Source: Antedon mediterranea (Eukaryota > Animalia > Echinodermata). From it: DNA of 64,000 nt. Positions 39,469 to 64,000 of the stretch are shown here, in pieces. Position 1 is the stretch's first letter, and every line of letters starts with the position of its first letter. A model generated the notes under the pieces. That model worked only from the letters and a program-made list of their open reading frames with translations, did not search any database and was not told the DNA's origin. Location: assembly GCF_964355755.1 (NCBI RefSeq), contig NC_092678.1, positions 6,588,422 to 6,652,421 of the forward strand, read 5' to 3'. The position numbers and the translations under genes are program-made.

Positions 39469-41091
39469 GAATGCCATCAAGACGATGACGCTCTAACAAC
39501 TGATACGGGAACAACTGAAAACACATCAACAGGAAACGCATCAACACATAAAGACAGTGGAGTTGGACACGCAACTGATGAGAGTGTCCGTAATGATTCT
39601 GAACAAGAAGGTGCGGGTGATGGACTATCTAATCAATTGGCAGATCGAATTCGTAATGGAGAATTACGTTGTTCTACCGATAGTTTTATGTCTAATGAGC
39701 AGGACATTGTCCATGAAATTTCATTAAGTGAATGTTTAAAATTCCGTGAACAATTATCAAATAAATGTGATAAACACATGCGGAGTGACACGGACAGTGA
39801 AAGTTTACGTGGTAAAGAGTCAAAGGTTATGAGATTAGGGTCTGATTCTATGGAAACGACTAGTGTTAGCGGAGAGGATACGTTAAATCGTAACGGACAA
39901 TGGATGGGAATGGCACATGATAGTCAAGTATCGGTGATATCACAAGATGTTCAGGATAGTATCTGGGCCAAACAAGATAGTTCTAACACTCAAAGCATGG
40001 AATCTGTTGATAGTGCGGGAAATTCTAAAGATAAATCAACACCTGAACCCCCGGTAGCTACTGGGAGTGGTGATGAGACTGAAATAAAGCCGGATGGCCC
40101 AGTTGAGCTATCATTAAAATTAAAAACACTTCAGAACGGTAAAGCTGACACTACAGCTCACATGAGTCTTGTTGATAAATCTACGAAGAAACCGTTACTG
40201 AGTGGGCGACACCGAAGTCGCTTACCTAAAACAAATCCTTCAAGTCCGCGTAAATCATCATCATCTAGTTCGCGTGACCGTTCTAGTAGCAAAGAAAAAT
40301 CAACAGCTAGCCCAGCAAAAGAAAAAGTTAAAACTACTAGTCAACAAAAATCTCACCATCAACGAATGCCCGCTACTAATCCTCGATTGAGGGCGCAATT
40401 GTCTCAACGTACACCTTACTTTGCACGAATCCAGGAGCAAGCGCAATATTTACACACTAAAAACAGTTTCTTGCAAAAAGAGAATATTCAACTTCGCAGA
40501 AGTTTAGAATCTCTTAGTAGTATTACATCGATTCCAAATTACGCTAAGCATTACCGTAGTTACATGCACCTAGTCAAAAAGAACGAAGAGAAAGCATATT
40601 TGGAGGATAAAGAAAAGGATAGCAAACAAGAATCGCAACCAGAAATGAAATGGAAGGTGAAAATTCGTAGCGACGGAACACGATATATTGCCAGAAGACC
40701 AGTAAGAGATAAAATATTAAAAGAACGTGAAAATAAATTACAAGATGAGAGAGCCGGTTTAACGACTGATGACGAAGCAATGAGTGAAATGAAATTGGGA
40801 CGGTATTGGAATAGAGAAGACCGTAAACGGCACGTGGAACGTGCAAAGGATCAGAGACGACGTAGAGAATTCATGGTGCAGGCTCGAATGGAAGCCTTGA
40901 AGGAACAGGGTAATGAAGAAAATAAAAAGCAGGATATTTTCGATTTAAGTCGTAAGAAAATGAATAAGAAAAAAGCCAAAGGTGGCTGGGATGACTTTAT
41001 GACTGTCGAAGAAATGCTAGCTCATGGTATTCGCATTAGCCCTAGCAATTCAAAAGAATTCAACCCTCTTCTTAATGTAACCACTGTTTAA
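39469..41091 (+). CDS. PDZRN4: PDZRN3/4-like, terminal coding exon (LNX3-homology region, C-terminal VTTV)
   Basis: ttatag|GAA acceptor in frame with the 484-aa ORF; motifs KDSGVG-TDES-RND, IP-YAKHYRSYMHL, WKVKIRSDGTRYI-RRPVRD, GLTTDDEAMSEMKLGRYW, MTVEEMLAHG and PDZ-binding VTTV-stop. Confidence 0.97.
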   Translation, partial: ECHQDDDALTTDTGTTENTSTGNASTHKDSGVGHATDESVRNDSEQEGAGDGLSNQLADRIRNGELRCSTDSFMSNEQDIVHEISLSECLKFREQLSNKCDKHMRSDTDSESLRGKESKVMRLGSDSMETTSVSGEDTLNRNGQWMGMAHDSQVSVISQDVQDSIWAKQDSSNTQSMESVDSAGNSKDKSTPEPPVATGSGDETEIKPDGPVELSLKLKTLQNGKADTTAHMSLVDKSTKKPLLSGRHRSRLPKTNPSSPRKSSSSSSRDRSSSKEKSTASPAKEKVKTTSQQKSHHQRMPATNPRLRAQLSQRTPYFARIQEQAQYLHTKNSFLQKENIQLRRSLESLSSITSIPNYAKHYRSYMHLVKKNEEKAYLEDKEKDSKQESQPEMKWKVKIRSDGTRYIARRPVRDKILKERENKLQDERAGLTTDDEAMSEMKLGRYWNREDRKRHVERAKDQRRRREFMVQARMEALKEQGNEENKKQDIFDLSRKKMNKKKAKGGWDDFMTVEEMLAHGIRISPSNSKEFNPLLNVTTV

Positions 41092-45422: not shown

Positions 45423-46063
45423 TTACGTACGTCCTAACGTTGCGTACGAACCCGTTTTGATTCTTAAAAGGGAAATCCCCGTCCCCTCACATTCAAGCGG
45501 TTAAGTTCCTTCACCTCGCCTTACGACGGAAAACCGCATAGTTGCATTTACTGTAATTTTGCACGTTAAGCGTGTGACGCAACGTAACAAATTGCCCTTC
45601 CATTAATTGTGTTTTTCCCCGTCAGCGTGAAATCAAACCTGCTTGTTGCGCCTCAACGTTAGCATGCCGTAGAATTTGAGTACAGCGCGTTCTTTTGAGT
45701 ACCCGCTGTACTGTATGTTTTCCGGTGTTCTTTTGCCTTGCGTTATTGCGTGAAAACAAACTGATTTGATTTCCCGTAGCGATGTTACATCGTCAGTTCC
45801 CAATTGTGATTACACAATACAGCACTTTGCGTCGATGTGTCGCTGCGTCGACATTATTATGGCGCTTTTATATGGGCGGCCATAATAGTCAAAATAACCA
45901 ATAAACAAAAATACAAACAAAATAGAAATAATAATAAAAGTAATAATAAAAGTAAAAGAAAAAGGAAACAAAAATGTACAATTTGGAAAATCAAATTAAT
46001 AGTTAAATTTCAACATCGAAAAAAACCCTAAAATTTGAGGGCAGTATTTATTAATATTACAGA

Positions 46064-46082
46064 CCCCCCCCCCCCCCCCCCC
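46064..46082. repeat. Poly(C) run
   Basis: About 19 consecutive C. Confidence 0.95.
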
Positions 46083-46885
46083 AACACTCTACCGAAAATG
46101 CCGGGAGTCTCCTTTTTTTAGACATCTTCTGCTCTCCTGAGGAAAATGCAATTTCCTCCTGGTATTTTGTTTAAACCAAAAAATATTCCGATAATAATTT
46201 ATAAAGAAAAAGAAAGAAACTATGCTAATATCGATCCGCAAGATGTTTAATAAGTAAATTTTGCGTCTTTGGCATGTATGACATACACTGTTTACTAATA
46301 TAATGCCAAAAACTTCAATAGCGCCCTCTATGAATGTATGTATATTTTTCAAAATGTTATAGCGCCCTCTAAAGTTTGGACATGATTTTGTAAACCTCTT
46401 AATATTTTTATTAATTAATTTTAATTTAGTATCAATGTTAAATACTGTATAAGTAGGCATATTTAGTGATTTGTTTCTACAATAATTGTAGAAGGAAACA
46501 ATGGTGTTTTTCAGCAGCAAAATCCATTAAACCGTGTATACACGATCGGAAAACACCCGTATTTGGGGAAAATCGTTGAACCTAAATTGGTTGAATTTGT
46601 TTTAATTGTCAATAACTAATTATCTAACTCAACTTAATTAGTAAACAGGGTTATGTTAGGTGGTTAAAATCAGTACCGAACGTATGAACCAACTTTATAT
46701 ACCATCGAGTAAACATTCTAGTGAATTAGAATTTTGCGTTTACGTAAATTTATATATAGATAATTGTATTTCAAAATTTGTGTAATTATTTATGTGGATT
46801 TCATGAAAGATATTTATAATACTGAACAAATTCTAGACTTAACGACAAAATTGGACTAGAAATTCACGAGAAATACCTTTCTGTT

Positions 46886-47823
46886 GATGTGGTGATGATG
46901 ATGATGATGATGATAGCGGTGGTGGTGATAATGATGTTGATGGTGGTGATAATGATGATGATGATAGCGGTGGTGGTGATAATGATGATGATGGTGATAA
47001 TGATGATGGTGGTGATAATGATGATGATGATAGCGGTGGTGATGATAATGATGATAGCGGTGGTGGTGATAATGATGATGATGGTGGTGGTGATAATGAT
47101 GATGATGGTGGTGGTGATAATGATGATGATGGTGGTGATAATGATGATGATGGTGGTGATAATGATGATGATGGTGGTGGTGATAATGATGATGATGATG
47201 GTGGTAGTGATAATGATGATGATGGTGGTGGTGATAATGATAATGATGATGTTGGTGGTGATAATGATAATGATGATGATGGTGATAATGATGATGATTG
47301 TGGTGATAATGATGATGATTGTGGTGATAATGATGATGATTGTGGTGATAATGATGATGATGGTGGTGATAATGATCATGATGGTGGTGATAATGATCAT
47401 GATGGTGGTAGTGATAATGATGATGGTGGTGGTGGTGATAATGATGATGATGGTGGTAATAATGATCATGATGGTGGTGATAATGATCATGATGGTGGTG
47501 ATAATGATGATGATGGTGGTGGTGATAATGATGATGGTGGTGGTGATAATGATGATGATGGTGGTGGTGATAATGATGATGATGGTGGTGATAATGATGA
47601 TGATGGTGGTGGTGATAATGATGATGGTGGTGGTGATAATGATGATGATGGTGGTGGTAATAACAATGCTGATGATGATGGTGGTGATACTGATATGATG
47701 ATGATGGTGATGATGATAGTGGTGAATGATATGATGGTGGTGGTGATAATTCAATGATGATGATGGTGTGATAATGATGATGATGGTGGTAGTGATAATG
47801 CTGATGATGGTGATGATGATGGT
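46886..47823. repeat. Compound trinucleotide repeat of GAT/GGT/AAT units
   Basis: ~940 bp with a ~21-bp higher-order pattern GGTGGTGATAATGATGATGAT; explains the His-, Ile- and Met-rich ORFs. Confidence 0.95.
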
Positions 47824-48698
47824 CAAGGGCTGACCGTCGTGCAGTGTATAGTACCGATGGTGCTGCTAATCTAGGTTGTTTAAAGTTAATATCACACGTA
47901 CTGTAAGGCAATTCAAAGCTAGAAATATCCCCTAAGCTATATTTTGAAGTTATCCAGCCTATTAGATTGGGTGAGTTCTTTCAAACTTGTAACGCAACTG
48001 ACAAAGCCCTACAGGTGGCCAATCACAATTCAATATCATTGTCAGGGGTGGTCGCAGGACTATTTTAATGGGGTTGCCCAATGAGTCCAGGCTGTAGACA
48101 CTGAGTAGGCCTATTTGAGCCACATGACCACCCATGGCATTGTTCTTTAGACAATGTTGAAAATACCAGCAAAAGAATACTACAGTACACAAATTAATTT
48201 CAATATATAACTCCACAATATTTAAAATATAATACTGTATAATATAAGTTAAGATATATTTTTTGGTCCATAATAAAATATGTTCTAAATAATTCATTTT
48301 ACAAACGACGTACATACAAAAATACATATTAACATTTACAAATATAATAAATATAATATAAAATACTGACATCTTATTGCACACTGATTATATAATCTTA
48401 TTGAATTTGTTACAAATAAAAAAAATTGTGTCTTATGTGATGAACGGGATGCAAAAATAAATATTAACTATGTAGAGATGGAATTAATCCAACATAATAT
48501 ATTATAATATATACAATTCATAATATATAACTGATTTTAAATATAGCATATTTGTAAATAATACAGTAAGTTAACCATTTCATAACAATAATAGTAACAT
48601 TATACAGGCAGATTAATAAAGGGCCTGTTTCTGATAGTAAGAGAATATGGATTTTCTTTCCAGCAGAAACAGGTTTGCATAAAAAGAATTGTTAGCAC

Positions 48699-49038
48699 GC
48701 GACTCTACAGCTCACTATGTCGGTCAGTCGGTAAACACTAACTTGAGCATGCAACTGCAGCCATGTATATGGCCTTGTTAAATATGGTTTTAAAAACCTC
48801 AAACCTCAGTCCATTGTCAAATACCGGTTCTAAAAAATGGTTTTAGTAAAGCAATTTTAGCTGCAATATTACGATCTTGTCTATAAAAACAGTTTTAAAA
48901 ACAGGTCTTAAATGAACACAAGTGAAAACACAAAATAAAACATAATTAATAAATAACAAGGCCATATACATGGCTGCAGTCGCATGCTCAAGTAGTGTTT
49001 ACCGACCAACCGACTGACATAGTGAGCCTTAGAGTCGC
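48699..49038. repeat. Long inverted repeat, ~82-bp arms, ~173-bp spacer
   Basis: GCGACTCTA...GCAGCCATGTATATGGCCTTGTTA (48699-48780) is inverted at 48954-49038 with few differences. Confidence 0.85.
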
Positions 49039-49215
49039 GTTGCACACGACTAAAAATATAGAACAATTAAATATTGAAAACATATCATCATTTGTATATA
49101 AATATTTGTAATTGACAGTATAATAAAATGATATTTAAAGATTTAATATTTCATCCTAATTAGTTTTTATTAGGACAAAATATAAAAACGTATGTAAAAA
49201 CATTCATTTTGACAA

Positions 49216-49395
49216 TAGGGAGCTTTTTATTTGCAACGATCGGCAATCAACCGGGTCAGGTAAATTGATGTTTCGACAGTTGTTTTCTGGACATAGACGA
49301 GGCGTGAGGACACACATCCCAAATATTCTCGCATGCGCACAATGAACTAACATGAGGAGTTTGGTGGTTGGTCATCGCAAATTGAAAGATCTCTA
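49216..49395. mobile_element. Degenerate MITE
   Basis: Imperfect 24-bp IR TAGGGAGCTTTTTATTTGCAACGA / TCATCGCAAATTGAAAGATCTCTA (18 of 24 match). Confidence 0.45.
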
Positions 49396-50238
49396 ATATT
49401 GCAAATTTACATGTGCATACAATATAACAAAACATAACTAAATTAGCAATACCACAAGATATGCTCATGGTTTATTTAATTTACTCTATTCTATGGCTGG
49501 AAGAAGGATACTACAATTAAAACCAGAATTACACACATCTTATACATAGAATCTACAATTAGAAAGACTTATTCAATGCACCAGCACTGAACTATTGTAC
49601 TAGATTGAGAAAGAAGATATCTGAGTGGTCTCATAATGAGTTAATGTAAAGCCAATGATGATGGACAATAAAGGGTAGATTGTTATAAATGCAAAATAAT
49701 AGGCCTATATTCTAGGTATAGATAGATTGATAACCTATGTTAGTTTTGAGATGCTGTCGGAAGAAAAAAAAACAATTAAAAAATATCATCAAAAACTAAC
49801 AATAGTAGTAGGTTTATTAGGTGTCTAATCTATTACCAATGGTTGATCACCAAAATGAAGATTTAAAAGGAAAAAACTATCTGTATGTTTGTATTAATTA
49901 ATTAATTAAATCTAAAAATTCTTATAAACATTTAATAACAGTTTAATACACAAGTAAACTATAAGATTGAAAAGGCGAAATTGCAATCACTGTCATAGTA
50001 AAACCTAAAGACCTAATTCAATGATTTTTTGATTTTATACTAAAGTCACGTTTGTTGTCTAGTTTATTTTTGATATCTAAATATGTATATCTAGTTACAA
50101 AAAAAATTACTGAAGAATATAATTATGATTTCACATATTATGATGAATATTAATTTCATAGTCTGCTGAGCTACTGTATGTATTTTATGGTCAGGTATAA
50201 TTATTTTGAGCTATTTAAGAAATGTGATTTCTAGATTT

Positions 50239-53200
50239 TTAACTATGACAACTACTGATCCATTTCAATTTAGCAACTGATGTTTCATCTGTGATATCTG
50301 AAAGGTCATTGCCCATCAGATTCAGCATACCTTGTTTCAATGCTATTCCATTTCTTTCACATTTATTCAGTACATACAAAATGATACCACCTGAAAGATT
50401 GCAATCTGCTAAATTTACATTTTCTAGTTCTGGAGAGAATTTTAATAAACTAGCTAATTTTGATACTTCAATTGAAGATAGGTTAATCCCACTTAAATTT
50501 AACTTTTTCCATGTCAATATCCTACCATGTTCATAACAGGCATCTACAAGACCTCTTATGTTATCAACTGACAGGCTGTAATCAATAGGCATAAATTCAC
50601 AATTTGATGAATATTCATAATTAAGTAGATTCACCAACTTAGAAAGTGTAACACAATCAATATCTGAAAGATTGTTTCCCTTTAAAACAAGCATGTCACT
50701 TTTCAATACCACATTTTCTTTATCACATTCCTTCAATAAATCTTTTATTATACTACCTGAAAGATGGCAATTGCTCATATTAAGATGTTGTAGTTGTGGA
50801 GAGAATTTTAATAATGAAGCTAATTTTGATACTTCAATTGAAGATAGGTTAATCCCACTTAAATTCATCTTTTTCCATGTCAATATCCTACCATGTTCAT
50901 AACAGGCATCTACAAGACCTCTTATGTTATCAACTGACAGACTGTAACCAATAAGCATTCCGGGGAAGTACGATAAAATTCCATAATCATTGCAAAGTAG
51001 ATTCACCAACTTAGAAAGTGTAACACCATCAATATCTGAAAGATTGTTTCCATACAAACCAAGCATGTCACTTTTCAATACCACATTTTCTTTATCACAT
51101 TCATTCAATAAATCTTTTATTATACTACCCGAAAGATGGCAATTGCTCATTTCAAGATGTTCTAGTTGTGGAGAGAATTTTAATAAACAAGCCAATTTTG
51201 ATACTTCAATTGAAGATAGGTTAATCTCACTTAAATTCACATATTTCCAATTTAAATTTGTAATATCTTTATGACAGGCATCTGAAAGATCTTTTAAGTT
51301 ACTAAGTGACAGGCTATATTCAGTAAATGTGAATTGCCAATCAAAAATATTGGTTTCCTCAATTACTAAATTCACAAATTTAGAGAGTGAAACCCCATCA
51401 ATATCTGAAAGATTCAAGTTGTTTCCTTTTATATAAAGTATGGAAGGTTTCAATACCACATTTTCTTTATCACATTCATTCAATAAATCCTTTATTATAC
51501 TACCTGAAAGATGGCAGTCACTCATATCAAGATGTTCTAGTTGTGGAGAGAATTTTAATAACCAAGCTAATTTTGATCCTTCAATTGAAGATAGGTTAAT
51601 TCCACTTAAATCCAAACTTTTCCATATCAATATCCTACCATGTTCATAACAGGCATCTGCAAGACCTCTTATGTTATAAACTGACAGGCTGTAATCAGTA
51701 GGCCTCAATCCGCATTTATTGCGATAAAAATTATATCTATTCCCAAGTAGATTCACCAACTTAGAAAGTGTAACACCATCAATATCTGAAAGATTGTTTC
51801 CCTTTAAAACAAGCATGCCACTTTTCAATACCACATTTTCTTTATCACATTCATTCAATAAATCTTTTATAATACTACCTGAGAGATTGCAGTTACTCAT
51901 ATTAAGAAATTTTAGTTGTGGAGAGAATTTTAATAAGCAAGCTAATTTTAATCGTTCAATTGAAGATAGGTTAATCTCACTTAATTCCAACGCTTTCCAA
52001 TTCAAATTTGTACCATGATCAAGACAGGCATCTACAAGACCTTTCAAGTTATCAACTGTTAGACTATAATCAGTAAATGTGAATACATCACCCATTAGAT
52101 TTACCAACTTAGAAAGTGAAACCCCATTTATATCTGCAAAATTGTTTCCCTTTAGAGCAAGCATGCCAGGTTTCAATACCACCTTGTTTTTATCACATTC
52201 ATTAAATAAATCTTTTATTATACTACCCGAGAGATTACAATTTCTCATATTAAGACGTTGTAGGTGTGGAGAGAATTTTAATAAACAAGCTAATTTTGAT
52301 CCTTCAATTGAAGATAGGTTAATCTCACTTAATTTTAACTTTTTCCAATTCAAATTTGTACCACGATCAAGACAGGCATCTACAAGATCTTTTAGGTTAT
52401 TAACTGATAGACTATACGTAGTAAATGTGACTGCTAATTCATCAACTGCTAATTCATCATCAACATAAACATGCATTAGATTTACCAACTTAGAAAGTGA
52501 AACCCCATTTATATCACTTAAATAATTTTGTTCAAGTTGAATGGTTATATTAACTGGTAAGATATTTTCATCCAAAACCTGGTTCAATGTCACACCAGTT
52601 ACACTGTAAGGTTCAAAACACAGCATTTTAAGGTTAGGCGAATATTTCAACAAATGAAACAAGAATTCAGGACTCACTGACTTGTCAACTGTTAAATTTG
52701 TGAAGCCAGTGTATTGAAATTGAAATTTGTCCATTTCAGTTAAGAGGGTATCAATCTTGTCTTCAAAAAAATTTAAGGATGATAGATTATATCTATGTGC
52801 ATAATTGCGCCATTCCCCATGTGTAATTATAAATAAATGAACTAACATAGCACAACAATTGGTTTGTTTATTGGCTTCTGATTCCTTAATAGTTGAAAGC
52901 CAAGAATCAACATGTGCAACAAAGTTATCATTTTTAAGGCATCTGCTCATAAGTTGTATCAAATGTTGATTTTCTATTGGCGTTGCTCTATCCTCTTCCA
53001 TATTACTCTCAAGGTCAAAAGATAAAATATGTCTAAATGACTCTGACATGTCTGCACACGTTTCTTTCAGTTCTTCATCACTTGATGTTTTTGTATCTAA
53101 TTCTTCTATTACAGAATGATTATCTTCTGCCTTTACATATGTGAAATACTTTGCTAGTGAATACAAATTTGAAGCTTTTACTTTCAACCAATGTTTCATA

Positions 53201-54533
53201 AATTTACCAGCATCAGCACCTAGAAATCCTATAGTGAATATTATTGTCATATGTAGATATTCATTAGATATTATCAAGTCACATTCCTCCTCATTTAAAT
53301 CCTGACACTTTTCAGCAAGATAAAACCCTCCTAATGCCTCTGAAACTAACTTGTGTGGTGGAGAATACAACTCATTTTTATCACTTTTACTAAGAGGTGG
53401 ATTTTTGTAAACAAATCCAATTTTGAGTGCCAAGTCCACTATTGATTTATCAAACATAGTTGTGAACTCATACTTGTCAATGATCAGTTTATTTGTCTTT
53501 AGTCCTTCATAGATCCATTGACCTAATGCTATTATTGCAGTTTTATATTCAGCTGGAATTCTTTCAAAACTGGCAATTTCAGATTTATTTTCGTCACTAT
53601 TTACCTTGGATAAATATTGATTTAAAGTACAACAAATTAGTTCTTTGAAAAGATCTGATAAGTCATCCGAAAGGTTTCCGGATTCTTCCCATGTTTTGCA
53701 TATCATAAGTAATGACAAAGGAGATGAACACAATTCAAATACTGAATGCTCTTGCCTGTGTCGATTATAACACAATTTCCTAAATAGCCTTTCCCCTAAA
53801 TCCTTATTATTTGCAAAATATCTATTAATGTAGTTCTTTATACTTATTACACTGAATCCATTTACCTCCACATGCACATCACATTTATCAATAAATTTTG
53901 CAGTGTTTTCAGGTCGTGATGTTATTATTGTGGTGTTTTTAAAATCTGTATTTGTAAACAGGACCAAAGGATCACCAGCACCTTGCTGCAACTCATCTAA
54001 TCCATCTAACAGTAACATTATTTCATCCCCATGGTTGATTATGAATGTTTTAATTAACTGTACAGACTCTTCATCGTTTCTTGTACCGATACAAATAGTA
54101 AATGTTTCAAGATAATCTATATTAATAATAATGGCATCTAAGATTTTCTTTCCAGCCTGTAAGTCTCTGATATTTACTAGAAACACTATTTTATCAGAAA
54201 ATGTTTTATCTTTACCAGTAGCCCAGTTATAAGTAATGTATCTAAGAAGGGTTGTTTTTCCCATCCCACCTTTACCTGTAAATATGATTTTATGAGCATT
54301 TTTATCTTTTATCATCACCAATATCTCTTCCAATGTTTTAGGTACTTTTTCTTTCTGGTCATGTTGGCTTCTGTTCTGTTTTGTAGCTTCTGCTTGATTC
54401 TCTTTCTTACTTGATTGTACTAACTTGAGATCAGTGAATAACTCTTTTATATCGAGGTCCTCAAGAACTGCTGTTTCCAATTTGTTAAAATCTTTATATA
54501 ATTCTTGTTGCTTTTTTTTCAGGTATTTTTTAA
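50239..54533 (-). CDS. NOD-like receptor, coding exon 3: NACHT NTPase plus LRR region
   Basis: aacag acceptor at 54535-54534, phase 1, continuous with the 1413-aa ORF; Walker A GKGGMGKTT, Walker B LLLDGLDE, sensor-1 IITSRP, LCSSPLSL helical-domain motif, winged-helix His; C-terminal LxxLxLxxNxL repeats. Confidence 0.95.
50250..52540 (-). repeat. Six in-frame tandem LRR cassettes of 348-381 bp
   Basis: SK(L/F)VNL anchor at about 50631, 51003, 51372, 51753, 52101 and 52482; spacings 372, 369, 381, 348, 381, all multiples of three. Confidence 0.92.
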
Positions 54534-55090
54534 CTGTTAAAAAGAAGATACATAAAGTTGTGTTTCTTACTAAAAACTGAATGGTACAAAGATTATTTGT
54601 ATATTTTACACACCTGCTTGTATTCTTGCAATTTGATTAAGTTAATTACACATCACATGTCATTTGGAATTAACCCTACCTAGGGGAAAAGTGATATCTA
54701 TGGTAATAATTAACACGCTCTAATGCACCTTCACCTTTCTGTAAACATTTTGAGGATTTTTGCGTGTTTGGAAATCAACTTGTTGTGTGCGCAGTCTATA
54801 ACTGTTCTACTCAGCATCCAAAGTTGGAGCACTGCCTTTTTAATGGCCTAGCTTCCTGGCCTATTATTCTTGAATGATGTGGTATTTTGTAACGGCCAGA
54901 GGCTCATTCACAAACAAAATGTGTTCTTCCACAAGGTGGTATGAAAGAAATACAATACAATTACAGAATTCATGGTAAAACTCCAAATGTCATACTATGT
55001 ACCTCAAATACTATTAATGTATATTGAAAATCAGACTACAGCTATTTATACGAAAAACAATAAATAGAATTCTTCATTGTCATAACTCAC

Positions 55091-55198
55091 TTCTTGTTTC
55101 TTGTGATTGTGAAGCCTTTTTCTGTGGTGGATGATCTTCACAATCAGAGGAACTTTGGTCCAATTTGTGCTGGTTTGATTTACCTTCAAATTCTACAC
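55091..55198 (-). CDS. NLR coding exon 2, low-complexity linker
   Basis: ctttag|GT acceptor and A|gtgagt donor; 108 nt, phase 1-1, open: VEFEGKSNQHKLDQSSSDCEDHPPQKKASQSQETR. Confidence 0.8.
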
Positions 55199-56017
55199 CT
55201 AAAGTAAGAAGATAATTTGTAAAATATGAATCACTGTATATTCTTCAATCTTACCTGATGAAAGAAGATTTTTTTTTTTACTAATGTATAAATGTTACCA
55301 ATAAATTATGTGTTTCAAGCAACAAACAAAATGACACACATAATCTTACAACACAACATCAATCTAAAGTGGGTGATTTGGGTAGATAATCTCACATTTC
55401 ACTCTATAATTTAACCTCAATAGAAAATTACAAAATTTCTTACATTCTTTGAAAAGTTAGGCACTAATAATGTATTTTTGTACCTACTGAGATCTTTTTT
55501 TCATAAAAAAAATCTTGATTTTTAAAATGGAAAGAGTGGCAGGTAGCCCCACCCCCTCTAGATCTGTCACTGAGCTTCCCCTGATAAGGAAACACTTTGT
55601 TGGCTCCTGAATATGTCCCCTATTGAGGTTCTGTCTAAGATTCTAGAAGTTGATTTATAAAATTTTGCCCTTATGAAAATTCACAATTTTTTTTTATTTC
55701 GCAATATTTACCAAAATTCTGTCTATGTCTGCCTGGTACCAAGATTTCCGCAAAAATCTTGATAAGCTTGTCATCCAGAAATTCATTTTATGTTTATTTG
55801 TATGAGACGAAAAAATAGTTTTCCCAATTGATATTTAACATTAATAATGATATACTTTGTTATTTGCCCTGTTCCTGAGTAGATTTTACAGCTTCATTTG
55901 GTGGGTAAAATTAGAATTTAAATCGACACAAACACTTGCATCTTTCAAAGAAATGTAACAACATTTTTATTTTATATAAAGGAATTTCTTTTTAAAGAAT
56001 ATATATTATATACGTAC

Positions 56018-56552
56018 CTTTTTCTAGTAATATGTTTTTTGCACGTGGTCCAAGGCAACAAGCAAACCTTTTTATTTTGTCTGGTTTATTGACTAAATGT
56101 TCATTAACCTCTAGGTAAAGTACTGCTTTCCAAATATTGTCAAATTTAAAATGTTCAAGTTGATAGTTAGCAATAACAGCATCAAACCCTTCTTGGTCAA
56201 CTTGCCTCAATGCCTTAAACAGTGTTCTCCTATATGATGACAACTGTTTATAATCATCAGTTCTTTGTTCACTGTCTTTCCTATAGCGACTGACAAGAAT
56301 TTCAGCATCTTTAATTTCTGATATTTTAGAAATCTCTAATAAAAGTTGAGCTTTAATAGGAGTGATATCACCTTTATTTTCTAGAGCATTAAATAAATTA
56401 TGTGAGTTGAAGCCTTTTCTGGTAATGTCTCCTACAGGTAAATGTTCAAGTAGTAAGATTTGCAACCAAGTGTATTGTTCTCCTTTATAGTATTTACTGA
56501 GATCAGCTTTCAATTCCGAAAAGGTTTTCTTTTTACAGTCAATGTCAGTCAT
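56018..56552 (-). CDS. NLR coding exon 1, tandem death-effector-domain-like region
   Basis: ATG 13 nt after a ttgcag acceptor; AAAG|gtacgt phase-1 donor; F..LK..LS, LF..LE..G.I....LL.EI and a second LSSYRR.LF repeat resemble tandem DEDs. Confidence 0.82.
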
Positions 56553-58939
56553 TTTACAAACAAATCTGCAAATACAAGATACTGATAGTATTATAAATTA
56601 CTACATTAAGTTTAAGGATTCAATACTAGCAAATTATACCTGGGTGGATTTCAAATTTAGTTAACACATTCCTAGTACAATTCCGATCAATTTACCCCCA
56701 GACATCGGTATCTCCCTATAATTACCAACCGCTTCATTCACATGCTGGTGATAAATCCTTCCCAGTACAAACTTTAGCTTCATAATGAGACAATGTTGGA
56801 GCCCCAGGGCGATGCAGAGCTATGATATGGTACTTTGCTAAGTCTGTATGCATAGGTGTCATATTGGCTAATAAATAAAATATTAATTGTGATTACCTCT
56901 GCCCCAGCCTTCTTTCCCCTCTCCCCATCCCCGTCACAATCAACAAACCTTAATACGGTTCAAATGTAGTAAATGTCCCCACTACAATTCCAATCATGTT
57001 GTTCCTCATTACACCTAAACGGCAATATCTCCTCCCCTCCTTCCCTCCCTTCCGCACTTGATGTGTTTAAAGACTTCCCAGTACAAATTTCCGGTTATGT
57101 TGAGCCATCACTCCGTGGCAGTTTTCAAATGTAGTTTAAAACATTCCCAGTTCGATTACGTTGATAGTATAGGCTCACCACCAAACTTTCAACACCTTCC
57201 GGGGGATAATTAAAATACTTTCGTACTAGTACAATTCTCCAAGCAAACATTTTTTTAAGCAAATTTTTAGGTTAACTGAGTTTGTTTAATTTATTGTCTT
57301 ACTTTTTTCATGATACATTGATATTATTTTTTTATTTTTGACGGTTTTGATAAAAAAGCTTATTGAAAACAAATTTAGGCCAAGAATAACCAAAGTTTGG
57401 TCTCCGTTTGTCATGGCAGGAGATATTTGAAAACATGAACCTCTAAGAATTTCCTGTTTATGTTTTCAAAAATTTCAGGGAAATATGTCTTTAACCTGTT
57501 TATAAATAATTGTGAAAATAACAGAACTTACATGCTGCACTGAATCTATAGTATATCAAAGATTTTCTGAAGGGAATTGTGGACACTAGGTTTCCTAAAA
57601 AGTAAGTTTTAGTCCGAAAATCCACCTTGTTTTTCAGAATTTTTCTACATAGAAATCTTGTTTTTCTGCCTGGCATCTAGCCATCTTGTTTTTCTACCTG
57701 GTTTAGCACATAACATCAACAGACTTACATTGCCTATAGTTATGTTTATTGTTATGCAAAGTGCCAACTCCCTTTTTACTGCGTTCTGTGAGTTAAAAAA
57801 TCAGTCTTGCGTATTATTCTATTCAATAAAAAATTGATAGGCTTATAATATATTCATTTTCAATCAATTGTATAAAGAAACTGAAACCAAGCTATGCTAT
57901 TCATATACGCAATACAGTAAATTGTTATGAGGCCTATGTAATTATAGACAGCGCACTCTACAGGTAGCTTTTCAATCACGCAATTTCAAAACCTCTACTG
58001 TAGTCTACCTTGAATATTATGAAGCTATGAAAGCTATGCATAAAAAAATTAGGATTTTGTAATATGCAATGTATTTTTAATGCTAAATACAAGTGCTTGA
58101 ACTTGATTCATAAAAACAATATTCATGATTATTAATGATTTCCTGGCAACATAGAGAGAAATTAATTTGATTCTCCCCTATACAGTAAAATGTGCAATAA
58201 GTTCAGAAAATATTTATTATATATATATATATATATATTTTTTTTTTAGTATTTTGTATCATTATCATCCATGAAAATTATGAAATGAAGGTATAGAAAT
58301 CTTGAGTATTCATGTGTATTGTCTCAAACAAGAAGTAATTAAATGTTTAAACCAACCAATTCCACATATCTTGAATTTTTTACATGAAACATATATATGT
58401 CTTTATCAGAAGAAATCCTGTAACGGCTAATATTAATTACCTACCTGTGAGCAGAATATTTTGATTACACTGTATGGCAAAAATGAGAATACAGATGAGT
58501 TGTTGGTGTTTCCATGGAGAAAAGCTGGTTGTGAGAAACCCAGACTGATCTAGACTCTGTGTGACATGTCTGTGTGTGTGCGACATTGGGTTAAAGTCAT
58601 GTGATACCACTAGATGGTGAATTATGGATGTGCAAAGCGTACAGAAGTACTTGCGGCAAAGAATAATTACGCAAGCATGCGCTAGTACTTTATAAAGTTC
58701 GATTGATTGATTTTGGAATGAAACATCTCATAAATACGTATTATAATAACAATTATGGAATATTTTAAAATTCATAATGCATGCTTTGCTTACTAATAAA
58801 TTAAAGTGTCGTGGCAAATTATTACAAATGGAATGATGAACAAGTCATGAAATTTAATAAAGTTGGCGGCGCAGTTTGTGTCAAAAAAAGCTTCTAATCA
58901 ATCCAATGTTGACTGTATACAGATTGATTGTAATCAGTA

Positions 58940-59125
58940 TTGATTGACAAAGATAAAGGAATCATCTATGCTGAGTTTTGATTCAATTAAAGTTGTAGAG
59001 TGAGCCCTCTATTGACACAGATAAAGGAATCACTTATGCAGAGTGCTGATTGGCTTAAAGTTGTAAAGTGGGACCTCTATTGATAAAATGAGGGAGTGAA
59101 AGTTGTAGAAATGGCCCTCTTTTGG
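58940..59125. repeat. ~68-bp tandem repeat upstream of the NLR
   Basis: AAAGTTGTAGAGTGAGCCCTCTATTGA and AGATAAAGGAATCA blocks recur two to three times. Confidence 0.7.
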
Positions 59126-60284
59126 CAAAGATGAGTAATATGAATGTTTGTATTTTTTTTTGGAGCTTGGCCTTGAAGGCCAGTTGTAGTTGAAAAGCCA
59201 TGCTAGGTGGATGTATACGTATTACAATAAGGTAATAGATATGTTCAACTATAGTAGGCAAAAGGCAATATAGGTCTAAATGTTCTGGTACAAAATAATT
59301 AGCACAATCTTTAATGAGTTTTAAGTTAATTACCTTTATTGATGGTTTTATACTGTATTTACGTTTGCTATGGAGGTTGAGCCATTTGGGCCACACCTTA
59401 ATTTGCTATAGCCTATTGGCTATATGTATACTCACCTGCTTATATTTAAAGTGTCTTTGGTTATGATCTAGACTGGACTAATTTATGAGGCATTTTCATT
59501 AGGCCTATTTAATTTTTACTTCTTGCCCTGATTGATTGAAATATATATTTATACTGGGTAACCTCTTCAGTCAAATACTGGTCTCCCAGAGGGCCCAGTT
59601 GGTGATCAGTGGCTGTGATGTACTAATACACCGAGGTAACCCCCCTACTCGTCTCGAAAGATGTACTAGGTTCTTTAAACTGGACCCACACAACACAATT
59701 TTTCTTTAGTGATTTTATTGTCCAGTATTGCTTTCATTTTTTTCATATTGCAAAGTATATAATAACAAATTCAATGGCCGTTCCAAATTTATTCTTGATA
59801 CAATTTGTTTTTAAAATAATTTGTCTGAGTACTTTTATCATAAAAAGTGCACTGTTATTATATTTATGCCTACTACTCCCATGCAAATTGGTATAATTTT
59901 ATAACCACATATTAAGGCAAAAAAAGACAGTGTGGAGCACGAGTAACTGCTTGTAACAATTTTATAACTCCATGTATAGATGATGCATTAAAAGGGTACC
60001 CTTCCAAAATAAAGTGAACACAATCCATACGTCTAGTTTGTATGTCCAAATTTTAAGTTCTTATCTGAGAAAAAACATTGTCCCCACAATTTTTTTTTGT
60101 ATTTGCTTTTCCATGCATCTACACACATGGGTAGAAATGGGGTATAACATGACCTGAATAGCACAGAGCCAGTATCTTATGTGGCCAATATTAGATGTTT
60201 AAACATTTTACACTTTTTACATTTTCAGTAATCCTGTCAACATTCTCAATTTGGAAAGAAGTATGCTCATAAAACGACCCTTGA

Positions 60285-60820
60285 ACCCAACTATAATCTT
60301 AACACTAATCTAATTTAAATTATTAATCCTAATAATGCTATTCCTAACACTAATCCTAACACTTATCTTAACACTAACAATTCTCTTAACTTTAACACTT
60401 ACCCTAACTTTAACATTAATCCTAACTTTAACATTAATCCTAACTTTAACATTGTTCCTAACTTTAACATTAATCCTAACTTTAACATTAATCCTAACTT
60501 TAACACTAATCCTAACTTTAACACTTATCCCTAACTTTAACATAAATCCTAAATTTAAAATGTACTAAATTTAACATTAATCCTAACTTGAACAATATTT
60601 CTAACTTTAACATTATTCCTAACTTTAACAATTATTTCTAACTTTAACATTATCCCTAACTTTAAAAATATTTCTAACTTTAACATTATCCCTAACTTTA
60701 ACATTATCCCTAACTTTAACATTATCCCTAACTTTAACATTATCCCTAACATTAACAATATTTCTAACTGTAACATTATCCCTAACTTTAACGCTAATCC
60801 TAAACCAAACCCTAAAACTT
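60285..60820. repeat. 18-bp telomere-like minisatellite (CCTAACTTTAACATTAAT)n
   Basis: Built from hexamers CCTAAC/TTTAAC/ATTAAT related to CCCTAA; bounded by a 16-bp inverted repeat. Confidence 0.92.
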
Positions 60821-60939
60821 AATTTACCCAAATATGAGCATGCTTCTTCATTTTGTCTGAATACATCTGCCAAAACATGGAGGTAGAGTGCTTTCGTGGG
60901 AAGTGGAGGTATGTTGTTGATGTTCATGTCCGACAAAGC

Positions 60940-61040
60940 AATCTGGTCAAGAAGCAATGTGGTCAAGATGAAGTCATCTGGTCAAGATGAAGCCATCTGG
61001 TCAAGATGAAGCCATCTGGTCAAGATGAAGCAATTTGGTC
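60940..61040. repeat. 19-bp tandem repeat (GGTCAAGATGAAGCCATCT)n at the start of the large array
   Basis: Four to five copies here, about two in each later array unit. Confidence 0.9.
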
Positions 61041-64000
61041 AACAAGAGTAGCGCCCGAGAGTATCGCCATGTTGCATCCATTCGAGTCTTGCCCTCCTGT
61101 ATGAAGTGGCACCCGAAGGTAGCGCCCCGTACTTACGCCATCTGGGTGAGGCTGTGTCTGCCACATGGCCAGGTCACGATGAGAAGGTTACTCAGTTTGG
61201 GGAATAAAAAAGTTAGTGGTAGAGGCACCCAGAGGCGAGCGCTCCTCAGTGGTAACGCACTCTATGGTACCCAACTGAATGGTATAGAGCTCAGAGGTAG
61301 CGCTCACGTGTAGGTCTATAGCTGTTTGTTTACAATGGAGCACTCAAGAGGTAATTTTACAATATTTTACTGATGATATTTTTGTCCATTTTATATTTTA
61401 CTATTGTTGGTCATTTTTCCATTTTAAGGTGATTTAATATTTTTGGTAATTTTCCCATTTTAAGGTGTTTATAATAAATCAAAAAATATGTATTAATTTT
61501 ATATGTTAATATTTATGTGCATAAATATTTTGATTTAAGTTTTCAATTTCTAGGAATAATGCCCGACAAGATGAAGCCATCTGGTCAAGATGAAGCAATT
61601 TGGTCAACAAGAGTAGCGCCCGAGAGTATCGCCATGTTGCATCCATTAGAGTCTTGCCCTCCTGTATGAAGTGGCACCCGAAGGTAGCGCCCCGTACTTA
61701 CGCCATCTGGGTGAGGCTGTGTCTGCCACATGGCCAGGTCACGATGAGAAGGTTACTCAGTTTGGGGAATAAAAAAGTCAGTGGTAGAGGCACCCAGAGG
61801 CGAGCGCTCCTCAGTGGTAACGCACTCTATGGTACCCAACTGAATGGTATAGAGCTCAGAGGTAGCGCTCACGTGTAGGCCTATAGCTGTTTGTTTACAA
61901 TGGAGCACTCAAGAGGTAATTTTACAATATTTTACTGATGATATTTTTGTCCATTTTATATTTTACTATTGTTGGTCATTTTTCCATTTTAAGGTGATTT
62001 AATATTTTTGGTAATTTTCCCATTTTAAGGTGTTTATAATAAATCAAAAAATATGTATTAATTTTATATGTTAATATTTATGTGCATAAATATTTTGATT
62101 TAAGTTTTCAATTTCTAGGAATAATGCCCGACAAGATGAAGCCATCTGGTCAAGATGAAGCAATTTGGTCAACAAGAGTAGCGCCCGAGAGTATCGCCAT
62201 GTTGCATCCATTAGAGTCTTGCCCTCCTGTATGAAGTGGCACCCGAAGGTAGCGCCCCGTACTTACGCCATCTGGGTGAGGCTGTGTCTGCCACATGGCC
62301 AGGTCACGATGAGAAGGTTACTCAGTTTGGGGAATAAAAAAGTCAGTGGTAGAGGCACCCAGAGGCGAGCGCTCCTCAGTGGTAACGCACTCTATGGTAC
62401 CCAACAGAATGTTATAGAGCTCAGAGGTAGCACTCACGTGTAGGCCTATAGCTGTTTGTTACAATGGAGCACTCTAGAGGTAATTTTTCCATTTTACAAT
62501 ATTTTACTGATGATATTTTTGTCCATTTTATATTTTACTATTGTTGGTCATTTTTCCATTTTAAGGTGATTTAATATTGTTGGTAATTTTCCTATTTTAA
62601 GGTGTTTATAATAAATCAAAAAATATGTATTAATTTTATATGTTAATATTTATGTGCATAAATATTTTGATTTAAGTTTTCAATTTCTAGGAATAATGCC
62701 CGACAAGATGAAGCCATCTGGTCAAGATGAAGCAATTTGGTCAACAAGAGTAGCGCCCGAGAGTATCGCCATGTTGCATCCATTCGAGTCTTGCCCTCCT
62801 GTATGAAGTGGCACCCGAAGGTAGCGCCCCGTACTTACGCCATCTGGGTGAGGCTGTGTCTGCCACATGGCCAGGTCACGATGAGAAGGTTACTCAGTTT
62901 GGGGAATAAAAAAGTCAGTGGTAGAGGCACCCAGAGGCGAGCGCTCCTCAGTGGTAACGCACTCTATGGTACCCAACTGAATGGTATAGAGCTCAGAGGT
63001 AGCGCTCACGTGTAGGCCTATAGCTGTTTGTTACAATGGAGCACTCTAGAGGTAATTTTTCCATTTTACAATATTTTACTGATGATATTTTTGTTCATTT
63101 TATATTTTACTAGTGTTGGTCATTTTTCCAATTTAAGGTGATTTAATATTGTTGGTAATTTTCCCATTTTAAGGTGTTTATAATAAATCAAAAAATATGT
63201 ATTAATTTTATATGTTAATATTTATGTGCATAAATATTTTGATTTAAGTTTTCAATTTCTAGGAATAATGCCCGACAAGATGAAGCCATCTGGTCAAGAT
63301 GAAGCAATTTGGTCAACAAGAGTAGCGCCCGAGAGTATCGCCATGTTGCATCCATTCGAGTCTTGCCCTCCTGTATGAAGTGGCACCCGAAGGTAGCGCC
63401 CCGTACTTACGCCATCTGAGTGAGGCTGTGTCTGCCACATGGCCAGGTCACGATGAGAAGGTTACTCAGTTTGGGGAATAAAAAAGTCAGTGGTAGAGGC
63501 ACCCAGAGGCGAGCGCTCCTCAGTGGTAACGCACTCTATGGTACCCAACTGAATGGTATAGAGCTCAGAGGTAGCGCTCACGTGTAGGCCTATAGCTGTT
63601 TGTTACAATGGAGCACTCAAGAGGTAATTTTTCCATTTTACAATATTTTACTGATGATATTTTTGTTCATTTTATATTTTACTAGTGTTGGTCATTTTTC
63701 CAATTTAAGGTGATTTAATATTGTTGGTAATTTTCCCATTTTAAGGTGTTTATAATAAATCAAAAAATATGTATTAATTTTATATGTTAATATTTATGTG
63801 CATAAATATTTTGATTTAAGTTTTCAATTTCTAGGAATAATGCCCGACAAGATGAAGCCATCTGGTCAAGATGAAGTAATCTGGTCAACAAGAGTATAGC
63901 GCCCGAGAGTATGGCCATGTTGCATCCATTAGAGTCTTAATTGCCCTCCTGTATGAAGTGGCACCCGAAGGTAGCGCCCCGTACTTACGCCATCTGGGTG
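60995..64000 (+). repeat. 565/572-bp near-identical tandem array, at least 5.3 copies, running off the window
   Basis: Unit starts (GAATAATGCCCGAC) at 61554, 62119, 62691, 63263 and 63835; each unit is a GC-balanced 361-362-bp block plus an AT-rich 203-211-bp block. Confidence 0.97.

Follow-up and report, generated by a model that had tools for sequence, protein, structure and literature searches.

The 64,000-nucleotide stretch of the Antedon mediterranea genome analysed here (the window; contig NC_092678.1) carries on its minus strand a gene for an NLR, a nucleotide-binding receptor with leucine-rich repeats (LRRs), whose sensor consists of six tandem cassettes, each holding at one fixed site an insert that differs in length and sequence from cassette to cassette. 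We consider it fairly probable (about 0.7) that the gene belongs to a crinoid NACHT-LRR family with a predicted tandem death-effector-domain (DED) head, in which the inserts and the neighbouring strand residues provide the ligand surface and owe their diversity to recombination and mutation acting in the germline. The design falls inside a known receptor class and is encoded in the germline, and with one length-variable, tyrosine-rich insert per four-LRR cassette it is apparently undescribed. A preliminary description of this DNA had already suggested an undescribed system; consistent with that, no account of crinoid NLR sensors was found in the open literature, subscription journals lying outside the coverage.

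An NLR with its entire sensor on one exon

The preliminary description placed an NLR sensor at positions 50250..52540. The assignment was borne out and the interval does hold the cassette array, but the gene is longer and includes two upstream exons. A minus-strand open frame of 1,465 codons extends over 50239-54636, and three predicted exons, linked by canonical phase-1 junctions (Table 1), join into one continuous frame of 1,645 aa, with all cassettes on exon 3, as had been proposed. The NACHT NTPase domain matches its Pfam profile above the cut-off and displays a Walker A motif (GKGGMGKT) and a Walker B motif (LLLLDGLDE). The C-terminal 826 residues are modelled by AlphaFold2 as an alternating alpha-beta LRR solenoid (predicted local distance difference test score, pLDDT, 87), for which Foldseek ranked CARMIL and ribonuclease inhibitors highest (E about 1e-8). 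Pfam LRR matches are by themselves weak on the sensor; on the strength of the model, the protein has the C-terminal LRR solenoid of a metazoan NLR. Likewise, neither a Pfam scan nor a PDB sequence search gave an answer for exon 1, while its AlphaFold2 model (pLDDT 87.9) has the tandem DED of caspase-8 as its top Foldseek match (template modelling score, TM, 0.74; E 1.4e-4). By this model, and with splicing as predicted, the N-terminus is the death-fold effector of a metazoan NLR.

Six cassettes with inserts at one site

The six cassettes and their variable segments were found as previously described, with lengths of about 116-127 aa and the quoted segments correct letter for letter, and Tandem Repeats Finder (TRF) detected the array with a period of 375 bp, 5.5 copies and 80% matches. 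The "near-identical" framework, on the other hand, proved an overstatement, as amino-acid identity is 57-82% over the six cassettes and 67-82% among cassettes 1-5, where framework dS is 0.14-0.29. The framework of cassette 6 has its nearest relative in the last cassette of P0004 (75%), the closest gene in A. mediterranea. Between SK(L/F)VNL and YSL, the inserts of cassettes 1 to 6 measure 20, 9, 18, 16, 17 and 15 aa.

The claim that these loops are largely unrelated and differ in length holds for most of their extent, although not for their ends. At the DNA level, 4 of the 15 insert pairs (1-2, 1-4, 2-4 and 3-6) exceed shuffled sequences (p<0.02), but once the last 7 codons are removed none of the 15 falls below p=0.03; the shared part of the inserts is their last codons only. 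In the AlphaFold model, one cassette comprises four LRRs, and the insert leads from the helix of one LRR into the following LRR, whose beta-strand is formed by the last five or so residues of the insert (V-F-T of insert 2 is strand E212-214). According to LRR geometry, the base of each insert adjoins positions x2 and x3 of the neighbouring strands, which suggests a single patch; the common face of inserts and x residues is read from the LRR register and not from measured distances. The two halves of a cassette are homologous (half-versus-half hhalign probability 96%, E 1.9e-9), and insert-less relatives are assembled from simple two-LRR units of 58-59 aa. A doubling of the 59-aa two-LRR unit therefore likely gave rise to the cassette, with one helix-to-strand linker turning into the insert.

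Insert 4 contains two strand-like motifs in tandem, the FxW motif also seen in the last insert of P0004 followed by an FTFT end. The latter resembles the ends in cassettes 1-2; AlphaFold takes the first motif (FxW) as the strand. Insert 4 may be a recombination joint. Insert 1, in which a slippage mark was detected (Table 1), has a counterpart in P0004 that is 9 aa shorter.

Table 1. Coordinates of the gene and of features within its cassette array (positions in the window)
Feature	Positions	Strand	Details
Exon 1 (predicted)	56018..56552	-	178-aa tandem death-effector-domain module; ATG and phase-1 GT donor
Exon 2 (predicted)	55091..55198	-	36-aa linker; AG/GT ends, frame kept
Exon 3	50239..54533	-	4,295 nt; NACHT, helical domains and entire LRR array
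NACHT domain	53809..54288	-	PF05729, E 5.1e-17, 62.6 bits (cut-off 26.7)
Cassette 1	52114..52494	-	127 aa; insert 52417-52476
Perfect 15-bp tandem duplication in insert 1	52430..52459		Slippage mark; tandem repeat call
Cassette 2	51766..52113	-	116 aa; insert 52069-52095
Cassette 3	51385..51765	-	127 aa; insert 51694-51747
Cassette 4	51016..51384	-	123 aa; insert 51319-51366
Cassette 5	50644..51015	-	124 aa; insert 50947-50997
Cassette 6	50275..50643	-	123 aa, ending in C-terminal cap; insert 50581-50625
72-nt tract identical in cassettes 5 and 6	50869..50940	-	Partner about 50503-50574; p=0.0004, about 0.006 for 15 pairs

Location of the variation and signs of selection

Positions x2, x3, x5, x7 and x8 of LxxLxLxxN follow the standard LRR register and were chosen after a first variability profile had been seen. 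The proposed clustering of changes at these strand positions was confirmed in the window cassettes, where pN at the 15 concave-strand x positions is 0.31 compared with 0.18 at random non-core sites (permutation p=0.0017). It also extends to the family, since in 27 relatives, with the window protein excluded, the top eight variable framework sites are all x sites, and x-site variability (0.47) exceeds that of 41 other polar sites (0.27; p=2e-5) as well as that of 19 polar helix sites (p=4e-4). Fixed-site codon models gave an omega of 1.27 (six cassettes) or 1.54 (five cassettes) at x sites against 0.4 elsewhere (p<1e-5 for the contrast), so the suggested dN/dS check came out in favour of a difference between site classes, but not of values significantly above 1. 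Recombination weakens codon-model tests of selection.

Further variation was seen in contigs assembled from sequencing runs. In one run X8 contig that crosses insert 4, 9 differences occur over 281 nt. Six fall inside the 48-nt insert (p=0.0013); two, which recur in run X5, affect x5 and x7 of the strand before it, and one lies elsewhere. Eight of the nine are non-synonymous, and 5 non-synonymous changes at 40 sites of the insert compare with 1 change at 59 synonymous sites of the contig (Fisher p=0.038). Inserts 1 and 6 together contribute another four listed differences, every one of them non-synonymous, from tables that favour unique regions. Taken together, these observations hint at positive selection at inserts and x sites without proving it.

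Probable gene conversion, copy number and the age of inserts

Cassettes are more alike within a protein (71%) than between proteins (54%), and for 79 of 154 the nearest neighbour resides in the same protein. Over the six window cassettes, the pairwise homoplasy index (PHI) test gave p=0.0008-0.010. The 72-nt tract shared by cassettes 5 and 6 is likely a gene-conversion tract, because the identical stretch starts just after two unrelated inserts. As for copy number, P0004 has four cassettes compared with six in the window gene and aligns with window cassettes 1-3 and 6, lacking two; P0004 could itself be paralogous, or its gene model imperfect, and the contigs are too short for counting cassettes per allele. 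Signs of both conversion and copy-number change are thus in line with the in-frame reshuffling proposed earlier. In a set of 135 inserts, 9 of 23 proteins carry near-identical inserts more than once; the window protein is not among them.

Although cassettes 3 and 5 are separated by a dS of just 0.14, there is scarcely any alignment between their inserts (p=0.06), and inserts 1-3 line up position by position with inserts of P0004. By these comparisons, the inserts are older than the similarity of the frameworks around them. Most simply read, conversion would homogenise the frameworks and halt at unlike inserts. In four listed contigs of run X1, different insert letters sit between the same framework flanks; all four are in frame and, on manual reading, free of stops. 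Summed X1 depth over the frameworks reaches 62,060, compared with 138-288 for single listed contigs; contig depth is not copy number, and this value was taken only as an indication of many copies. Inserts 2-4 were uncovered in run X2 at 96% likeness, which was not taken as absence.

A crinoid family

We found 163 full cassettes in 40 of 146 proteins, with 1-15 per protein. All 39 carriers besides the window protein are named crinoid proteins of Anneissia or Antedon; the annotated crinoids behind the family results are two species, and the protein counts contain isoforms and close paralogs. Two protein searches returned 41 and 37 matches, all of them to proteins named as from Anneissia japonica or Antedon mediterranea. 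When 1.84 billion representatives were searched with a profile, 111 matches emerged; 20 of the 90 unnamed representatives were looked up, of which 13 were crinoid, 5 carried no name and 2 belonged to other taxa, matching short LRR stretches only. In a NACHT tree of 66 proteins (FastTree, midpoint root, without a clade test), most cassette-rich genes group together, apart from the genes with 59-aa units.

After removal of 3 artefacts, 150 inter-cassette segments left 147 inserts (boundaries two residues before those of the preliminary description), of 8-46 aa and with 138 distinct sequences; 122 of the 147 have the FxW-type strand end [FLIV]xWxx. Tyr, Asp, His and Pro are overrepresented in the inserts, whereas Leu and Lys are scarce. 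Tyr makes up 11.1% of their residues, against 3.6% in the upstream parts of these proteins and 6.3% in random codons of 32% GC; Asp (11.9 vs 2.9%) and Leu (4.8 vs 12.1%) also depart from random AT-rich codons. Paratopes of antibodies and of the variable lymphocyte receptors (VLRs) of lampreys and hagfish are typically enriched in Tyr.

Between the window protein and P0004, identity declines from the NACHT region (412/482, 85%) through the frameworks (234/319, 73%) to the x sites (18/45, 40%) and the inserts (13/38, 34%). Insert 3, which has equal length in both, keeps 4 of 18 residues, and its frameworks keep about 75%. The N-terminal modules of the two genes are different. The exon 2 linker is 75-78% identical to two linker copies in P0004. 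Exon 1 shows no more than about 21% likeness to the N-terminal module of P0004 (E 3.1), despite the 85% of the NACHT region, but shares 45% identity with the first of the modules of P0147 (A. mediterranea), which has PF01335; effector exons were likely swapped between genes. P0147 is a multi-DED protein without NACHT, and a candidate adaptor. The intron end 5' of the NACHT exon (54508-54800) is common to many contigs, with many loose ends at 54638-54763; paralogs apparently have this intron end in common and differ beyond it, and 54508-54800 is a possible breakpoint zone for effector swaps.

Sister crinoid NLRs (P0010, P0017, P0058, P0059 and relatives) have long arrays of similar 58-59-aa two-LRR units with no inserts. 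Up to 55 matched stretches occur in these arrays, which vary at strand positions and come nearer to the classic fungal pattern discussed below. In P0002, P0018, P0044 and P0052, PF02338, which we take to be the OTU-like cysteine protease family, stands beside NACHT as a possible integrated domain.

Proposed mechanism and alternatives

According to the model that we favour, the cassette would have been born by doubling of the 59-aa two-LRR unit, with one helix-to-strand linker becoming the insert. Unequal crossing-over could then alter the number of cassettes and copy inserts, while gene conversion would even out the frameworks and re-pair strand residues with inserts. Unable to cross unlike inserts, conversion would leave these old and distinct, to evolve in place by substitutions and in-frame slippage. 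The inserts and adjoining strand residues likely form the ligand-binding surface, and the most likely ligands would be intracellular microbial or parasite proteins. By analogy with known NLRs, ligand binding could free the NACHT domain for oligomerisation, the tandem DED would nucleate a caspase-8/FADD-type assembly, and cell death or inflammation would follow.

Several results weigh against this model. Omega at x sites does not differ from 1 (p=0.35 for six and 0.13 for five cassettes), the comparison of M2a with M1a is not significant (p=0.069 and 0.094), and bootstrap values of dN_x/dS range from 0.78 to 2.59. PHI without cassette 6 is not significant (p 0.075-0.21), and the window frameworks remain below the 85% identity by which the repeats of fungal shuffling NLRs are defined. 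Since the protein counts contain isoforms and close paralogs, the p-values overstate independence. In the X8 contig, 8 non-synonymous differences out of 9 are about what random change would give (0.8), and the contig is a single record of depth 5.8, maybe from a paralog. Finally, the middles of the long inserts 1, 3 and 5 have pLDDT below 50, which suits flexible linkers as well as paratopes. Such linkers, unconstrained and merely tolerated, would leave binding to the concave-strand residues only, the usual situation in LRR receptors, the antibody-like look arising from homogenisation of frameworks around an indel-tolerant site. This explanation is unlikely but deserves to be taken seriously, as it accommodates the three low-confidence inserts, the non-significant omega, the slippage duplication in insert 1 and the Asp/Tyr runs of some family inserts, which could be microsatellite-like. 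It does not sit well with an insert composition that departs from random AT-rich codons (Tyr and Asp up, Leu down), with the non-synonymous excess in the insert of the X8 contig, or with the much poorer conservation of insert 3 than of its frameworks relative to P0004.

The other explanations concern origin or function of the variation. Somatic rearrangement of cassettes or inserts in immune cells, giving each cell its own receptor as in lampreys, would benefit from having every cassette in one exon and in phase, from the many framework copies as possible donors (1,473 run X1 contigs on 4.8 kb), and from the preserved frame at all 11 joints within the open reading frame (ORF) among the joints listed (12 of 35). 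It is nevertheless very improbable, given a gene that is complete where an unfilled germline frame would be expected, the lack of any cassette match in the rest of the 64-kb window, no heptamer or nonamer of recombination signal sequences in 49-57 kb, the position-by-position alignment of inserts 1-3 with P0004, and exact contigs of sample S1 (maybe the source animal) that cross inserts 1 and 5 at single-locus depth, insert 5 in run X2. Contigs drop rare variants, and low-level somatic change would escape them. The fullest version of the idea, an antibody-like intracellular repertoire evolved independently in crinoids, with Tyr-rich loops resembling the third complementarity-determining region of antibody heavy chains (CDR-H3) on a constant four-LRR framework and cassettes exchanged among many gene copies so fast that individuals, even immune cells of one animal, differ in their arrays, appears very improbable; restricted to the germline, it coincides with the model favoured above. 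We also rate as very improbable that the same diversification serves self/non-self or tissue recognition (allorecognition, or guarding of host proteins) in place of direct pathogen binding: the fungal shuffled-repeat NLRs het-d and het-e do act in allorecognition, as stated in the available text of PMC13449251 and PMC12222747, and LRRs need not bind microbial ligands (available text of PMC3879445), but dozens of genes with birth-and-death turnover would be explained more simply by pathogen pressure. An assembly artefact in the array or inserts can practically be dismissed; although none of the listed contigs spans the whole array, the 4.3-kb exon is open throughout, the same design appears in independent gene models of two species, and contigs of three samples cross inserts 1, 4, 5 or 6.

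Other features of the window

Elsewhere in the window, a 540-aa open frame on the plus strand (39469-41091) has no significant Pfam match and is unrelated to the NLR; its C-terminus may resemble the last exon of PDZRN3/4-type genes. A degenerate TGA trinucleotide is repeated about 313 times over 46885-47821, with several frames open. Upstream of the gene, at 60387-63888, recurring TRF rows describe an 18-bp array of 23 copies followed by a unit of ~570 bp repeated ~5 times, of satellite-like appearance. Rfam gave no match across 46,000-64,000.

Comparison with known systems

The VLRs of lampreys and hagfish consist of an LRR solenoid with variable concave residues and a protruding variable insert in the C-terminal LRR cap (LRRCT). 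Variable concave residues and a variable insert on an LRR solenoid are shared with the window gene; however, VLRs are extracellular and have one insert, whereas the window gene encodes an intracellular NLR, is complete in the germline and has one insert per four LRRs. VLRs are assembled somatically by a gene-conversion-like process (available text of PMC3900441). The window gene, in turn, is a complete ORF with no flanking donor cassettes in 64 kb, and its architecture is DED-NACHT-LRR, unlike the extracellular, stalked VLR protein capped by LRRCT and an N-terminal LRR cap (LRRNT). Of the antibody and VLR likeness drawn in the preliminary description, the layout of a constant framework with one variable insert therefore stands, and does so family-wide, but the mechanism does not: VLR-like somatic assembly is unsupported, because the inserts are in the germline and aligned with those of P0004, and no donor cassettes occur in the window. 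In regard to the fold, the alternating two-LRR unit of the ribonuclease inhibitor and NLRP-type alpha-beta LRRs is the closest likeness, with the top Foldseek matches. In the window gene, this 59-aa unit is doubled to about 105 aa with the insert added, and a whole-chain TM of only about 0.2 indicates that curvature or length differs.

Expanded NLR sets are known from other invertebrates, with about 203 genes in the sea urchin and clades A and C in the sponge Amphimedon, and NACHT together with LRRs on one exon is reported for sponge clade C and for some genes of Lottia, Capitella and Nematostella, along with N-terminal shuffling (PMC3879445 and PMC8913654, available text). The window gene resembles them in its death-fold/NACHT/LRR layout, lineage-specific expansion and N-terminal shuffling. 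On the other hand, a cassette-with-insert sensor is not mentioned in the available text of these sources, and crinoid proteins alone yielded full cassettes. How invertebrate NLRs come by their ligand specificity is still mostly unsettled, since the divergence of their LRRs usually defeats comparison. Here, the variable parts are held in a modular, near-constant frame, and swaps of inserts or cassettes can probe loop-grafted ligand binding in an animal NLR. As a scaffold that displays loops by nature, the cassette might also find use in binder design. In Ectocarpus, shuffling of repeats and diversifying selection were described for ROCO-LRR and NB-ARC-TPR proteins, candidate immune receptors (PMC3341825, available text); there, each repeat is its own exon, whereas the window array lies in one intronless exon.

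The nearest parallel is offered by fungal NLRs with repeats of high internal conservation (HIC), such as the Podospora het-d/het-e/het-r NWD family and the NACHT/NB-ARC-TPR and -ANK proteins, which likewise are STAND receptors (signal transduction ATPases with numerous domains) built with similar tandem repeats. According to the available text of PMC4986451 and PMC13449251, their tandem repeats undergo concerted evolution, are polymorphic in number and have their variable residues on the concave side; the latter source also reports HIC NLRs in animals, its main text naming neither Anneissia nor Antedon. In the window gene, the repeats average 72% identity and reach 82% in the best pair, short of the HIC threshold of at least 85% across a minimum of 100 aa; among the 27 relatives that have at least three cassettes, 7 attain it. 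Concerted evolution is discernible in the higher within-protein similarity and the 72-nt tract, and in PHI with six cassettes only. Furthermore, the fungal repeats are WD, TPR or ANK, with few variable point positions and no LRR found in the available text of PMC4986451, whereas the window gene has a four-LRR super-repeat with a length-variable insert. By analogy, the crinoid gene is best read as a counterpart of the fungal repeat-shuffling NLRs with an extra length-variable loop, and would thus carry their strategy into a deuterostome LRR family.
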